From: Candidatus Omnitrophota bacterium
GTDB lineage: Bacteria > Omnitrophota > Gorgyraeia > Gygaellales > UBA12090
NCBI GenBank assembly: GCA_030674475.1
Contig: JAUSCZ010000037.1
Location: 1-60,805 of the forward strand
Length of the DNA stretch: 60,805 nt
Direction of reading: 5' to 3'
The notes under the pieces are model-generated. The model ran no database searches. It saw nothing but the letters and a program-made list of their open reading frames with translations, and had not been told where the DNA came from. Shown one piece after another: positions 19,904-24,384 of the stretch. Numbering within the stretch: position 1 is the stretch's first letter; every line of letters begins with the position of its first letter. A program made the translations under genes and the position numbers.

Positions 19904-19993
19904 ATAAAACAAAAAACCTCCGCCAGCAAAATTATGCCGGCGAAGGTTTTAATTATTTTTTATGTGCCAGATTTGGTCCTTCTAACATAGCAC
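19904..19993 (-). ncRNA. Repeated leader/terminator element, copy 1 (putative structured RNA)
   Basis: GTGCTA..TGGCAC hairpin, A-rich linker, AAAACCTTCGCCGGC/GCTGGCGGAGGTTTT terminator. Homologous to 22363-22451 and 24191-24280. Confidence 0.6.
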
Positions 19994-20067
19994 TGTCTCA
20001 ATTGTCTACAGCATCTTATGCTATAAAATCGCGGCTCTACGAGGGTTTTTTTGGCGGCTGTAAAATT

Positions 20068-20370
20068 CTACACGCTATCCAGAAATTGTTTTATCTGGTC
20101 ATGGTTGCCGGCTAATACCGCAATGCAATTCTCGCCTTCTCGGCTTATAACTACACGGATATTTCCTTCGACGCCGGCTTCATAATAGGGCTTCCTTAAC
20201 TGTTTATAAAAAAATCGCGGGGCTATCTTTTGTGCTTCTTGTAGATTGCATCCGTTAGAGTAATAACCAGCTAAAGATTCAAGTATCAGTCCTGCTATTT
20301 TCCTTTGCTCATGACCAAGACGCTTAAGGCTTCTTTTAAAAGAAGGCCTGTAATAAAGGCGCAAAGGCAT
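20068..20370 (-). CDS. RelE/ParE-like putative toxin
   Basis: YRPSFKRSLKRL N-terminus, LAGNHDQIKQFL C-terminus. Lies downstream of an AbrB gene. Confidence 0.65.
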   Translation of the reverse strand: MPLRLYYRPSFKRSLKRLGHEQRKIAGLILESLAGYYSNGCNLQEAQKIAPRFFYKQLRKPYYEAGVEGNIRVVISREGENCIAVLAGNHDQIKQFLDSV

Positions 20371-20373
20371 TGA

Positions 20374-20631
20374 TTAGATTTCTCCTTTTTTTAGGTTAGC
20401 GATGAACCTCTTTGTCGCGCGCTTTTCTCTTCCCTTTTCCCTTGATGAAAGGGTATCTAATTTTGCGTATTCCTCATCGGTGAAATGCCTCTCCTTTGTC
20501 TCCAGAGGAATAAGCTCAATCCTCTTTTTAGAAAACTCCACCTCAAACATAGAGCCTTTTCCTAAACCCAAAACATTTGTGATCTTCTTAGGTATAGTTA
20601 TTTGATTCTTCGCTGTCATCGTAATTGTCAT
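20374..20631 (-). CDS. AbrB/MazE-family antitoxin
   Basis: MTAKNQITIPKKI...LGLGKGSMFEV. Promoter TTGACG-17-TATATT at 20653-20681. Confidence 0.85.
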   Translation of the reverse strand: MTITMTAKNQITIPKKITNVLGLGKGSMFEVEFSKKRIELIPLETKERHFTDEEYAKLDTLSSREKGREKRATKRFIANLKKGEI

Positions 20632-20797
20632 TCTTGTTCACCTCCTATAACAAATATACCATAAAGTAAGGAAATCGTCAATGGCGAAAGTAAGATGATG
20701 TTGAGTTGATATCTAAATTTTATCTTATTCTAAGGTTTAATTCAACAAAAACCTTTCAGAATTTTGCAATTTGAGACAGTTGAAAAAAGCCTTTTTC

Positions 20798-20877
20798 TGT
20801 TATTGCGGGCCCCGAAGCAATCTTCGACGGGGATTGCTTCGTTGCTTCGCTTCGCGGGGCGCTACCCGCAATGGGCA
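20798..20877. repeat. GTCATTGCG/GAAGCAATC-type palindromic element
   Basis: TGTTATTGCGGG..CGAAGCAATC..GATTGCTTCG..CCCGCAATGGGCA nested inverted repeats. Confidence 0.65.
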
Positions 20878-20880
20878 TAA

Positions 20881-21070
20881 AGGTTAAAAAGTGTTGCTAA
20901 AAAACCTAAAAAAAGACGATTTATTGACGAGCTCACGATAACTATTTACTTCGTTTATTGAACCGCTTGAAGAAACGAGCAAATCATATAGGCACTAAAA
21001 ATATAGGCTCCGTCAACAATTGTCGATTTTTTAGAGTAAAAATGGCTAAAATAGCAACACTTTTTAACCT
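20881..21070. mobile_element. 190-bp non-autonomous MITE-like element
   Basis: Perfect 19-bp terminal inverted repeats AGGTTAAAAAGTGTTGCTA / TAGCAACACTTTTTAACCT plus imperfect subterminal IRs. No transposase ORF. Confidence 0.8.
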
Positions 21071-21155
21071 CTAAGCCCGGGCTGACGGATACGGTTAGAA
21101 AATGAATGGATTGGATAATGCGAAAAATCCCTTCAGTAAGAGAAAACAAACACGC

Positions 21156-21434
21156 TTATGCAGGGACTACTGCTAACTTCAACCTGTATCCGATAGGCTC
21201 AAGGATATTCTCTATGGCATCCAGATTGGAAAACTCACCCTCTTCAATTTTGGAAATGTACTGTTGAGTTACACTGAGTTTTTTGGCGAGCTGCTCCTGG
21301 GATAATTTATGCTGGATACGGTATTCAATAATTTTCTTCGCCACCGCTGCTTTCTCCATGAGTAAATCGTAGCGAGCTTTAAAATCCGGGTTTCTTTTTA
21401 TTTTCTCCTTAATATAATCATCAGTTTTTCTCAT
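21156..21434 (-). CDS. XRE-family HTH antitoxin (HigA-like), now orphan
   Basis: LSQEQLAKKLSVTQQYISKIEEG, AGGAGG RBS. Follows a toxin remnant. Confidence 0.85.
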   Translation of the reverse strand: MRKTDDYIKEKIKRNPDFKARYDLLMEKAAVAKKIIEYRIQHKLSQEQLAKKLSVTQQYISKIEEGEFSNLDAIENILEPIGYRLKLAVVPA

Positions 21435-21449
21435 TGGTTTTTAGCCTCC

Positions 21450-21703
21450 TTACCTATTTTTCGTTAAAAAATCTTTTCTTCTTTCCTGAGCAAGCTCTAT
21501 TTCTTTTCGCGGGGCCTTCTGTGTCCCGTGCAACAATCCGGCAAGCCTTGCTAATTCCGCAAACAATTTCTCATTTGGCCGTATCGCTTTTTGGCAAACT
21601 TCGCAGCAAGATTAGCGACTTCCGTAAGATGTACATCCAGCATTTGCCACTCGCTTTGTGGTTTATTTTCTAAACTATGCGCGTAAAATTTTTGAGCGGT
21701 CAT
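21450..21703 (-). pseudogene. Fusion remnant: N-terminus of Cas3 HD nuclease joined to the C-terminus of a Gp49/HigB-type toxin
   Basis: MTAQKFYAHSLENKPQSEWQMLDVHLTEVANLAAKFAK, then a frameshift in the A5 run at 21588-21592, then AIRPNEKLFAELARLAGLLH|GTQKAPRKEIELAQERRKDFL. Promoter TTGACA-17-TATAGA at 21735-21763. Confidence 0.75.
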
Positions 21704-22652: not shown

Positions 22653-23015
22653 TTAATATTCGTAAGCCAGGCCTGATATATGAGCTTCATGTTTTAATTT
22701 AATATCTAATGTCCATAATACGGCTTCACTTAATATCGCGGAGGCCAGAAGATGAATATCAATCAAACCAAGTCCCTTACCTATTAAATTATTTCTTTCA
22801 ATGAATAACAAAACTTCCTCATTATCTAATAAATTAACTTTAGGGAGCGCGTTCAGCAGAGATAATATTTCAGCCCTGTTTTTAATATTTCCGCAGGCAA
22901 GCTCTCCAATAACGAATGGATGACAAGCTACCTCTCCATCATTCAGCAGCTGCTTAAGTTTAGAATTACCAGCGCGCAAATAGGAAACCCATATAGACGT
23001 ATCAACAAGAATCAT
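22653..23015 (-). CDS. vapC: VapC-family PIN toxin
   Basis: MILVDTSIW, HPFVIGELACG, GLGLIDIHLLASA, LWTLD. Confidence 0.92.
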   Translation of the reverse strand: MILVDTSIWVSYLRAGNSKLKQLLNDGEVACHPFVIGELACGNIKNRAEILSLLNALPKVNLLDNEEVLLFIERNNLIGKGLGLIDIHLLASAILSEAVLWTLDIKLKHEAHISGLAYEY

Positions 23016-23206
23016 TAATTGAGTCTCCTGCGTGGTATAATACGCATTTTTTTTTCCGTCCCTCCCAGTCTGGATAGTCTCTTACTGCTTTCCCGAGAGA
23101 TGAGAGCTTCTAACCCTAATCTAACTAAAGTAGTCTTCTCTTTTATACCGGTAAATTTAGACACTTTCCTAATCAGCTCATCTTCTATATTTAACGTTGT
23201 TCTCAT
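23015..23206 (-). CDS. vapB: VapB-family antitoxin
   Basis: MRTTLNIEDELI...TGIKEKT.LV..GLEALI.RES..RL..LGGTE. Promoter TTGACA-17-CATACT with three ATGCAT boxes at about 23232-23268. Confidence 0.88.
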   Translation of the reverse strand: MRTTLNIEDELIRKVSKFTGIKEKTTLVRLGLEALISRESSKRLSRLGGTEKKMRIIPRRRLN

Positions 23207-23286
23207 ATAGGGTTTCCTTTCATACAATATATATGCATTAGTATGCATTAAACATGCATACTTGTCAAGCCTTTTACTGTGAGCTG

Positions 23287-23370
23287 TTATTTAATTTTAA
23301 TGATTTTAATGATGTTGGTTTTTATATTCGTTCCGGCAAACCTGTCCAATCCTTGCTCGTCCTGGACCTA
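23287..23370 (-). pseudogene. Displaced copy of the 3' end of the radical SAM gene
   Basis: Encodes *VQDEQGLDRFAGTNIKTNII..., versus WVQDEQGLDRFAGVNIKTNL at 26832-26894. Confidence 0.85.
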
Positions 23371-23415
23371 GTTGTGTTTCCGGGCTTTTTCCCGACTCTG
23401 TCGGGAAAGTGGAAA

Positions 23416-23685
23416 CTATTTAAATAAATCAGAATGCGTGCCGGTCCTTACGAAAAATATATCCTCGGCTTCTATTTTGTAAATTAATAACCAATCCGGC
23501 TCTAGGTGACATTCTCTACATTCGTTAAAACTTCCTCCAAGTTTATGGTCTTTATTCTTAGCGGGGAGGCTCTTCTCTTCTATTAAAAGACATACTATTT
23601 CCTTTAACCTCTTTAAATATTTACCTCGCTTTTTGCCGCGCTTGACGTCTTTATTAAACTGTTTGGTATAAACAGGTGTAAGCAT
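23416..23685 (-). CDS. yafQ: YafQ-family mRNA interferase toxin
   Basis: YTKQFNKDVK, KDHKLGG, RECHLEPDWLLIY, RTGTHSDLF. Confidence 0.93.
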   Translation of the reverse strand: MLTPVYTKQFNKDVKRGKKRGKYLKRLKEIVCLLIEEKSLPAKNKDHKLGGSFNECRECHLEPDWLLIYKIEAEDIFFVRTGTHSDLFK

Positions 23686-23690
23686 TATAT

Positions 23691-23951
23691 TTAAATTTCC
23701 AGCCTTTCAAACATATCATTTGTATTTTTACACTTAGTTAGCCCGCGGCGTTTCCCAGCATCTTTTATAGCCTTCAAAGTCACCTCATTAGGAATTTTTA
23801 CCTCGAAAGGCAATCCTTCCCGTAAACTTACTTGCCTAAAAAACAAATTAATAGCCTCGCTTGAAGATAGTCCCAAAATATGGAAAATCTTTTCTACTTT
23901 ATTTTTTAAATGAGGCTCTGTCCTTGCTCTTATCATTGCTGTTTTAGCCAT
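23691..23951 (-). CDS. dinJ: RelB/DinJ-family antitoxin
   Basis: MAKTAMIRAR..P.LK, LGLSSSEAINLF, GLPFEVKIPN. Promoter TTGACT-17-TACAAT at 23998-24026. Confidence 0.92.
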   Translation of the reverse strand: MAKTAMIRARTEPHLKNKVEKIFHILGLSSSEAINLFFRQVSLREGLPFEVKIPNEVTLKAIKDAGKRRGLTKCKNTNDMFERLEI

Positions 23952-23970
23952 ATATTTGTCCTCCCGCTTG

Positions 23971-24153
23971 TTAACAGATTAATAATTCACTAAGTAAATT
24001 GTATCTCATTTGTGGAACAAAGTCAAGTTCTTTTTTAAGTTCTTTCCCGAGTTTGCAGCAATATGGCAACCATGAGTGATATGCAGTGGGGATTTTACAG
24101 GAAAAATCGCATAATGCCGCATTCCGTACTTTTTTCTTTTGGGACTTTTCCAT
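23971..24153 (-). CDS. Small Cys-containing ORF, possibly a truncated remnant
   Basis: AGAGGG RBS then MEKSQKKK...LCDFSC...PYCCKLGK. Its 3' end runs through the dinJ promoter. Confidence 0.35.
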   Translation of the reverse strand: MEKSQKKKVRNAALCDFSCKIPTAYHSWLPYCCKLGKELKKELDFVPQMRYNLLSELLIC

Positions 24154-24190
24154 AATTAATACCCTCTTATGCAACAACTAAAATCCGCGT

Positions 24191-24384
24191 ATAAAACAAA
24201 AAACCTCCGCCGGCAAAATTCTATCGGCGAAGGTTTTCATTATTTTTTATGTGCCAGATTTAGTCCTTCTAACATAGCACCGTATTCGTCATCTTTATTA
24301 AATCATTTTTTACCATAAAAATCAATCATAGGCAAGCAATTTCTTTATTGGCGGCATAAATGCCGCCGCTACAATAGCTCTGCC
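24191..24384 (-). ncRNA. Repeated REP-promoter-leader-terminator element, copy 3
   Basis: REP at 24351-24372, TTGCCT-17-TAAAAA promoter, hairpin and terminator homologous to copies 1 and 2. Confidence 0.6.

Follow-up and report, generated by a model that had tools for sequence, protein, structure and literature searches.

Introduction

Small pseudoknot riboswitches of the preQ1-I, fluoride/crcB and SAM-II type carry a terminator platform, and the combination of transcriptional and translational platforms with one conserved domain is typical of riboswitch-type leaders. Phage antitermination systems such as lambda nut/N, Q at PR'-tR' and HK022 put are processive, one site serving many terminators, and controller (C) proteins of restriction-modification operons act through DNA operators. 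Here we analyse an element that occurs three times on the minus strand of a 60,805-nt contig of a Candidatus Omnitrophota bacterium (JAUSCZ010000037.1, assembly GCA_030674475.1), a stretch of DNA that is called the window below. An original prediction, made from the letters of the window, described the element as an unrecognised combination of promoter, hairpin, micro-open reading frame and terminator. The analysis places the three copies in an RNA family that is conserved across the phylum Omnitrophota and new to Rfam 15, and argues, with a probability of about 0.62, that each copy is a cis-acting transcription attenuator, a riboswitch-type leader RNA.

The likeness of this leader to preQ1-I, fluoride/crcB and SAM-II riboswitches would lie in a short hairpin loop that pairs past an A-rich tail with a segment overlapping the terminator or Shine-Dalgarno helix, the pairing being a predicted one in the leader, and further in the existence of transcriptional and translational versions and of tandem units. 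It differs from them in having no Rfam match even at E=10 or E=1, and in its regulon: those riboswitches serve one metabolic pathway, whereas defence, restriction-modification and toxin-antitoxin genes follow the leader. The lambda nut/N, Q and HK022 put systems and the phage RNAs P1 c4 and P4 CI share with it a promoter-proximal structured RNA, a terminator and, beyond these, accessory or phage-like genes. Unlike the antitermination sites, the leader family has its own hairpin for each terminator, even in series, and unlike P1 c4 and P4 CI it has no match to the c4 family in Rfam. Control by C proteins also concerns methyltransferase and nuclease genes, and at 5/36 leader loci no more than 10 nt separate the end of a small XRE-type helix-turn-helix (HTH) gene from the inferred -35 element; the shared element of these loci is, however, an RNA hairpin with a terminator, and most loci are without an HTH gene.

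Type III toxin-antitoxin and abiF-motif RNAs, for instance RCd22/AbiF (doi 10.1101/2025.04.15.648962), are arranged as promoter, non-coding RNA, terminator and toxin gene. They are like the leader in being small RNAs with their own promoter and with a terminator before a co-oriented defence gene, and in their phage and defence contexts. RNAs of this kind are tied to one toxin family, whose members they bind and neutralise, whereas dozens of unrelated families lie downstream of the leader. ToxI-type RNAs consist of tandem repeats. The leader unit has no internal tandem repeat and is not followed by one cognate endoribonuclease family, and a ToxI-like type III system was rejected; the type I/III-like RNA that the original prediction had also considered is not supported, given the same lack of tandem antitoxin repeats and the diversity of the downstream genes.

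The three copies in the window

A repeat search of the window returned a family of 94 nt with three minus-strand copies, at 19903-19996, 22361-22454 and 24190-24283, where the original prediction had placed them. Identity to copy 1 is 61% for copy 2 and 93% for copy 3. A degenerate 29-nt core pattern has exactly three matches in the window against 0.00 expected from 100 shuffles. Copies 2 and 3 have 140 nt in common (22415-22554 and 24244-24383, 83% identity), so that the further shared upstream stretch with a 'GTAG REP' hairpin was correctly described. The parts of the three units are as follows, the score being that of the covariance model described below.

24191..24335, minus strand: leader copy 3, whole unit (repeat search, core pattern, fold; 95.3 bits)
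24335-24330, minus strand: copy 3 promoter, -35 TTGCCT, with TGg and -10 TAAAAA at 24315-24307 and an inferred start at about 24300 (by reading)
24280-24251, minus strand: copy 3 hairpin P1, loop GAAGG at 24269-24265, followed by the A-rich linker at 24250-24238 (fold)
24237-24200, minus strand: copy 3 terminator, CCUUCG at 24233-24228, U-tract to 24191 (fold)
22363..22506, minus strand: leader copy 2, whole unit (repeat search, core pattern, fold, terminator scan; 93.2 bits)
22506-22501, minus strand: copy 2 promoter, -35 TTACCT, with TGg and -10 TATATA at 22486-22478 (by reading)
22451-22422, minus strand: copy 2 hairpin P1, loop GGAGG at 22440-22436, linker at 22421-22410 (fold)
22409-22373, minus strand: copy 2 terminator, CCUUCG at 22405-22400, U-tract to 22363 (fold, terminator scan)
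19903..20020, minus strand: leader copy 1 (repeat search, core pattern, fold, terminator scan; 96.4 bits)
20020-20015, minus strand: decayed promoter region of copy 1, CATAAG without a -35; the 5' tail carries GACAAUUGAG (read against metagenome locus L017)
19993-19964, minus strand: copy 1 hairpin P1, GAAGG at 19982-19978 (fold)
19950-19913, minus strand: copy 1 terminator, CCUUCG at 19946-19941, U-tract to 19903 (fold, terminator scan)

The fold of each copy begins with a 6-bp hairpin whose loop is large; the A-rich linker comes next, and after it a long G+C-rich hairpin with a U-tract behind it. The fold energies of copies 1, 2 and 3 are -30.9, -36.5 and -37.3 kcal/mol, with z-scores of -3.5, -3.7 and -7.2 relative to shuffled sequences. 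The terminator scan reports copies 1 and 2; the terminator of copy 3 has an interrupted stem and is visible in the fold only. The variation in the terminator stems preserves pairing, as had been noted, but the change is one between U-A and U-G on the 3' strand (CGGAGG or CGAAGG) and not from G-C to G-U. The promoter proposed for copies 2 and 3 can be read as a -35/-10 pair; it is of the extended -10 type and lies under the threshold of the promoter scan. Copy 1 has kept the homologous upstream stretch and lost the -35 element.

An RNA family of Omnitrophota

The source genome (G000) holds at least five copies, i.e. the three of the window and two on contigs C6 and C9. The fourth (C6) has an HD-domain gene on one side and a type I methyltransferase gene on the other, and the fifth (C9) differs in its stem sequence and contains an insertion of 60 nt. 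In the sister genome G002, copies are found ahead of an HsdM gene and ahead of a nucleotidyltransferase gene. The strict DNA pattern matched just 2/61 genomes of relatives and a covariance model was therefore needed. This model, R1, was built from 13 copies, and its E-values are rough. All genome counts are based on samples of incomplete metagenome bins; about 300 Omnitrophota genomes were searched and about 150 sequences aligned. R1 matched 86/151 genomes of the same order at E<=0.01, including 63/103 of high quality, each matching genome having 1 to 6 matches, and 48/151 genomes across the phylum at E<=0.001. In one control phylum 5/121 genomes gave a match, and one of the three matches inspected looks genuine. 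This copy (L134, G312:C144; 47 bits) sits on a 5.5-kb contig of a metagenome bin, which is either a mis-binned contig or a case of horizontal transfer.

Searches with the strict pattern gave four loci in public genome contigs, two of them genuine, in Omnitrophica records, and 12 loci in metagenome contigs, which on reading were divided into nine genuine ones and three chance matches (L015, L022, L023). A collection of viral contigs yielded 16 loci, and six putative viral contigs were confirmed by R1. Ten alignments of weak R1 matches (about 30-38 bits) were read and consisted mostly of lone terminators or decayed copies; one, L085, is situated where a coding frame ends.

The description of the element as unrecognised holds. 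At the gathering threshold Rfam 15 has no match in the window, where c4 antisense RNA, the known riboswitches, abiF and pistol were among the families searched. Up to E=10 the window gave chance matches alone, which were driven by the terminator and had E>=0.05 (e.g. the L10 leader), and six further loci had none at E<=1. The analogy with P1 c4 and P4 CI control is not borne out by these searches, and nothing suggests an antisense partner. Full-text literature searches, which leave most subscription journals outside their coverage, returned no description of the family.

Anatomy and conservation of the unit

Unless a smaller alignment is given, counts in this section refer to 150 unique members. 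The parts of the unit follow each other in the order sigma-70-type promoter, short 5' tail, hairpin P1, A-rich linker and intrinsic terminator. The promoters are mostly near-consensus: the best -35/-10 pair has a score of 9 or more out of 12 in 58/71 copies, and the end of the -10 element is mostly 15-23 nt ahead of P1. Large family f4 has TTGACA-17-TAnAAT promoters, and by reading the window's genus uses the extended -10 type. The 5' tail has a conserved motif, ACAAUU-N-GG, for which no convincing pairing partner was found.

The P1 stem occurs in at least six versions (GUGCUA, GUGGUA, GUCCCG, GUCCUG, GUGGUG and GUCGUA), and in every one of them the 3' strand matches. Pair counts in 72 sequences are GC49/CG20, CG35/GC33 and AU44/GC26, one position being often unpaired. 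The covariation score of P1 was reached by 0/500 shuffles. Since this alignment had been fitted to the model, the test was repeated with an independent MAFFT alignment of 24 diverse members and RNAalifold, which recovered both P1 and the terminator and showed double changes at two P1 pairs, 11 at one and 9 at the other. The covariation that the original prediction had asked to be checked is thus present. The loop of P1 measures 14-18 nt and contains a conserved GUU-N-GAAGG (GUU..GAAGG in 135/150). The A-rich linker takes one or two extra hairpins directly after P1 in five copies (C6, C9, L017, L028, L062) and is almost wholly deleted in one member, L021.

The 5' strand of the terminator reads AAACCUUC in 147/150 members, with CCUUCG in 139, while the 3' strand is free to have A or G facing the two U's, giving U-A or U-G pairs (72 sequences). 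Invariance of one strand while its pairing partner varies is the mark of a second constraint, and points to a second job for the 5' strand besides termination.

The tiny open reading frames (ORFs) noted in the three hairpins exist as described in the window, but a function for them is not supported: the AUG is present in 52/150 members and replaced elsewhere, e.g. by ACG, GAG or GUG, and no Shine-Dalgarno site precedes it on reading of the window copies and metagenome loci. With no conserved small ORF having a start codon and ribosome-binding site, a type I toxin-antitoxin system and a leader-peptide attenuator were rejected.

Position of the unit in leaders

The units lie ahead of genes. Based on crude ORF calls, a co-oriented ORF was found within 350 nt downstream at 59/68 evaluable loci, an opposite one at 7 and none at 2; the median distance from the terminator to the start of the co-oriented ORF is about 23 nt. 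Of the seven opposite cases at least one is an artefact, as at L004 an HsdM gene begins 57 nt downstream. Units also occur in series behind one promoter: G213:C51 has three of them in about 500 nt, and G217:C13 and G187:C29 have a pair each; further pairs are found at L082, L083 and L121. In these series each terminator is preceded by its own hairpin, which suggests a mechanism that acts locally and not processively.

The second units of L114, L115 and L116 have lost the U-tract, and their 3' strand is AAAGGAGG, with a start codon 5-6 nt further on. L113 has the same arrangement, but its frame ends after 13 codons and no ORF was called. Because the 3' strand in L113-L116 is the Shine-Dalgarno site of the next gene, CCUUC is, on the sequence pattern, the terminator strand in most members and an anti-Shine-Dalgarno strand in others, and the loop sequence GAAGG is a mimic of a Shine-Dalgarno site.

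The unit thus combines a 5'-leader position, co-oriented with and close to a gene, with a structured domain that has covariation support and with an expression platform that has bases in common with this domain and is either a terminator or a helix sequestering the Shine-Dalgarno site. The cis-acting reading draws on the co-oriented and close genes, the units in series and the variants that hide a Shine-Dalgarno site. With a covarying hairpin ahead of co-oriented genes and no Rfam match, the attenuator or leader interpretation proposed at the outset stands.

A predicted switch between loop and terminator

The loop sequence GAAGG is complementary to CCUUCG, the preceding nucleotide being C or U in 52/72 sequences, and the five pairs between loop and CCUUCG are formed in 94% of cells in these sequences. 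The duplex has a median energy of -7.7 kcal/mol as compared to -3.4 kcal/mol with a shuffled strand. In two members CCUUC is changed to CCUUU; the loop of L087 has an A at the matching place, and L193 keeps the G as a G-U pair.

These features suggest the following mechanism. The sigma-70-type promoter would start a transcript of about 105 nt, counted from a predicted start site, that consists of the short 5' tail, P1 with its loop GUU-N-GAAGG, the A-rich linker and the strong intrinsic terminator with its almost invariant 5' strand AAACCUUCG. By default the terminator would form, the short RNA would be released and the downstream gene would be off; in some members an equivalent helix would hide the Shine-Dalgarno site instead. 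Off is taken as the default state because the terminator energy outweighs that of the loop pairing, unless the latter is favoured by folding during transcription or by a bound factor. Pairing of GAAGG with CCUUC would create an H-type pseudoknot with the A-rich linker along P1. By occupying the terminator or anti-Shine-Dalgarno strand it would allow the polymerase or ribosome to proceed into the gene, if the direction of control is as we infer. The pairing could be stabilised or blocked by a small molecule, by a protein or by plain folding kinetics.

If the element is indeed an attenuator of this kind, a single RNA control element would be shared, in an uncultivated phylum, by dozens of defence and mobile genes with no relation to each other, including genes for four classes of methyltransferase, restriction nucleases, Cas3, a SAVED-domain protein, toxin-antitoxin systems and antirepressors. 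It would be an unusual way of controlling horizontally acquired genes, which would be gated after initiation by a common attenuator and not by individual repressors. A more specific version is a new riboswitch class with an H-type pseudoknot aptamer of about 55 nt (P1, a U-rich loop side, the GAAGG:CCUUC helix and the A-rich strand) that, on binding its signal, turns on restriction-modification, CRISPR-associated, toxin-antitoxin and stress genes throughout Omnitrophota. We put this forward as a tentative possibility. Its signal could be a methyl-cycle metabolite, which is suggested by the many methyltransferase and few radical-SAM genes downstream, or an alarm nucleotide. Such a riboswitch would put the accessory defence genome of an entire phylum under a master control that acts at the level of RNA. 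In practical terms, the work yields a candidate riboswitch or RNA-protein switch that is open to testing, a sequence model that can serve in the annotation of Omnitrophota genomes, and a marker of variable defence islands.

Weighing of alternative explanations

Several findings weigh against attenuation by this switch. No pseudoknot pair is changed on both sides in the 72 sequences, both strands being nearly invariant, and in L078, L082, L083 and L195 the pairing is weakened to four pairs. With a median of -17.9 kcal/mol the terminator is far stronger than the proposed competitor. The promoters of the window copies remain under the scan threshold, and the genes that would be regulated are heterogeneous (methyltransferases, nucleases, toxin-antitoxin systems, Cas3, SIMPL, proteases and TPR proteins), unlike most riboswitch regulons. 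Some units precede genes that have a strong promoter of their own, as do window copy 1, L059 and L060 with their small genes, and four viral-contig copies; at such places the unit need not control anything. Finally, homology between genomes often covers the RNA unit alone, which would also fit a free-standing RNA gene. That reading, in which the copies are trans-acting sibling small RNAs (sRNAs) beside hot spots of gain and loss of defence and toxin-antitoxin genes, and the neighbouring genes are bystanders, would account for the unit's own promoter, strong terminator and several copies per genome, for the downstream genes with their own promoters, for the change of both flanks around a conserved RNA unit when G000 is compared with G002 and the window with L026, and for the varying content of the Pif1 helicase-to-rpoN locus among sister genomes. 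It leaves unexplained why 59/68 downstream ORFs are co-oriented at a median distance of about 23 nt, often with too little room for a promoter, why units stand in series inside one leader and why variants hide the Shine-Dalgarno site of the next gene, and on these three grounds it is ranked second. Moreover, Hfq, ProQ and CsrA were not found in the 92%-complete source genome, and the exposed conserved loop resembles a Shine-Dalgarno rather than an anti-Shine-Dalgarno sequence. We consider free-standing sRNAs unlikely.

Recognition by a protein would place the same leader under a different reader: a host RNA-binding regulator, such as a GAF-ANTAR protein, would bind the loop and free the terminator strand. 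Conservation of the loop in sequence and not in structure alone (135/150) is what such a site would show, and the heterogeneous regulon suits a global regulator better than a pathway metabolite. The source genome has one GAF-ANTAR gene, and ANTAR domains occur in 133/151 genomes of the order as compared to none of 14 named control genomes. Yet ANTAR does not track the motif, which is present in 7/18 ANTAR-negative genomes and missing from many ANTAR-positive ones, and the CAT/RBD antiterminator and a second NusG were not found in the source genome (92% complete). An ANTAR substrate is a pair of small neighbouring hairpins, each with a six-base loop, of which the second overlaps a terminator. 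The leader unit is a single hairpin with a loop of 14-18 nt, and ANTAR, being nearly universal in the order, does not discriminate; an ANTAR target RNA was therefore rejected, and a protein-dependent antitermination site in general appears quite improbable. The least likely explanation is a DNA-level element, i.e. a recombination or attachment site or cassette boundary (integron attC/attI-like or half-dif) conserved through recognition by a recombinase, for which we see very little room. Direct repeats do punctuate a variable array of small modules, cargo is exchanged behind a constant unit and the motif is on six putative viral contigs. The conservation is nevertheless that of an RNA: G-U pairs are tolerated on the transcribed strand alone, compensatory changes preserve the RNA helix, and promoter and U-tract are conserved alongside. 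The ends of homology (at the promoter and 45 nt past the terminator) fall outside the repeat, and neither the 24 window ORFs between 16 and 31 kb nor 36 upstream ORFs include an integrase or transposase. The term mobile in the original prediction is accordingly right in that the unit recurs with changing cargo, and wrong insofar as it implies an accompanying transposase or integrase. An attC site is an imperfect palindrome with inverse core sites and an integron integrase nearby; the repeat ends lack inverse core sites by reading, and an integron cassette array was rejected. A dif/Xer site is 28 bp long, has two recombinase arms and occurs once per replicon; with at least five copies in the source genome and conservation that follows an RNA helix, such a site was rejected, and the half-dif scar suggested earlier is not supported.

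The GAF-ANTAR protein of the source genome has 234 aa and is encoded on contig C38 at 71514-72218 (locus L204, 3015-3719), among pstB/phoU-type genes.

Genes downstream and upstream of the leader

The tabulation of downstream genes that had been proposed as a check comprised 117 ORFs, which were scanned against Pfam in sets of 33, 27 and 57. Many families are present, with an enrichment of DNA methyltransferases. A DNA methyltransferase domain occurs in 27/117 (16/33, 3/27 and 8/57), with HsdM-type, N6_N4, D12 (including RadC-D12 fusions) and C5 classes. The other groups of interest are listed below.

Restriction-linked nucleases downstream: AlwI, Mrr, NgoPII (twice) and Vsr (Pfam)
CRISPR-associated, downstream: Cas3 (twice; Pfam)
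Other defence-type genes downstream: PLD-SNF2 protein, SAVED, STAND NTPase, DUF4238, DUF3800, DUF4062, AlbA_2, NYN (twice) and PIF1 helicase (Pfam)
Phage or mobile-type genes downstream: Bro-N (three times), RhuM (twice) and nucleotidyltransferase; ORF6N in the window (Pfam)

Recurrent families outside defence are SIMPL, trypsin-like protease, DUF3857-transglutaminase, a radical-SAM/HhH protein, DUF2188 and TPR proteins. Upstream of the units we found unrelated housekeeping genes and no constant partner. At six loci (L119, L123, L127 and L128 of the viral collection, L059 and L060) a second promoter, overlapping a perfect palindrome, stands behind the leader. This promoter is followed by a small conserved ORF of about 60 aa with no Pfam family, which looks like an autoregulated antitoxin-type gene.

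The island of the window

The small modules among which the window copies sit form an island, bordered by rpoN (16139-17521) on one side and by a Pif1-WYL helicase gene (25182-26750) on the other. The island contains three MazE-type/PIN pairs, VapB-PIN, RelB-YafQ, an ORF6N gene, an HTH gene and a 50-codon Cas3 HD start; these modules and all three leader copies share one orientation, and the toxin-antitoxin operons carry their own near-consensus promoters according to the promoter scan. The features that adjoin the leaders are:

21810..22328, minus strand: ORF6N-domain gene (Pfam ORF6N, 5.8e-33), which begins 39 nt past copy 2
23971..24153, minus strand: 60-codon ORF after copy 3, from ATG 24153 (68 codons from TTG 24177), of no family, a doubtful gene
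23951-23416, minus strand: RelB-YafQ, next after the doubtful ORF behind copy 3, with its own promoter at 24026-23998
19114..19764, minus strand: MazE-PIN pair 140 nt downstream of copy 1, with its own near-consensus promoter at 19811-19783
22512..22543, 24341-24372 and 25128-25159, no strand assigned: REP-like hairpin with a GCGGCAT-AAAT-GCCGC core (repeat search), the first adjoining the copy 2 promoter upstream

The predicted position of copy 2 directly upstream of ORF6N agrees with the 39-nt gap, and the promoter scan reports no separate promoter between the copy 2 terminator and the ORF6N start codon. An ORF does follow copy 3 as well, but the one described as having a ribosome binding site is without a family and is doubtful as a gene. 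Under the attenuator reading, copy 2 would gate ORF6N and copy 3 the stretch leading to RelB-YafQ, and copy 1, with its promoter lost, would mainly end the upstream toxin-antitoxin operon.

Comparison with other genomes indicates that the leader unit is a constant platform behind which genes are exchanged. The Pif1-to-rpoN interval of the sister genome G002 has two leaders and other cargo (nucleotidyltransferase, DUF7830, a Cas3 HD fragment, TacA-GNAT and RNase T), and the G002 copy most like window copy 2 precedes a different gene. In genome G001 RelB-YafQ directly abuts Pif1. Homology between copy 3 and metagenome locus L026 spans the region from the promoter to 45 nt past the terminator and nothing more.

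The REP-like hairpin has 11 matches in the genome (9 forward and 2 reverse, about 10 sites) at up to two mismatches, and the leader copies in other genomes lack it. It forms a low-copy element of its own, independent of the leader RNA family. Its window copies each come just past a stop codon, two of them behind PIN genes and one behind the Pif1 helicase gene.

The 50-codon ORF at 21551-21703 (minus strand) reads as the start of a Cas3 HD nuclease and has a promoter-like site upstream by reading. At the matching position G002 has a 93-aa Cas3_HD fragment, and intact cas3-like genes stand behind leaders L062 and L183. The window ORF is probably a remnant of a leader-cas3 unit.

Between rpoN and the HTH gene lies a free-standing LAGLIDADG-type ORF of 281 aa (17856-18701, plus strand; Pfam 2.5e-12). 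G002 is without this stretch, its homology skipping from window position 17652 to 18694 across just 37 bp, and among DNA contigs of four runs (85% likeness) a contig from another run joins 17653 to 18694. From these junctions the stretch looks like a homing-endonuclease insertion. An ORF of 100 aa at 20068-20370 (minus strand), with no Pfam family, is paired with a MazE-type antitoxin gene at 20374-20631 and may encode an undescribed toxin partner. Between the HTH and MazE-type genes, a 27-nt inverted repeat that is 93% complementary encloses 152 nt of non-coding DNA (20873-21078) in a MITE-like arrangement.

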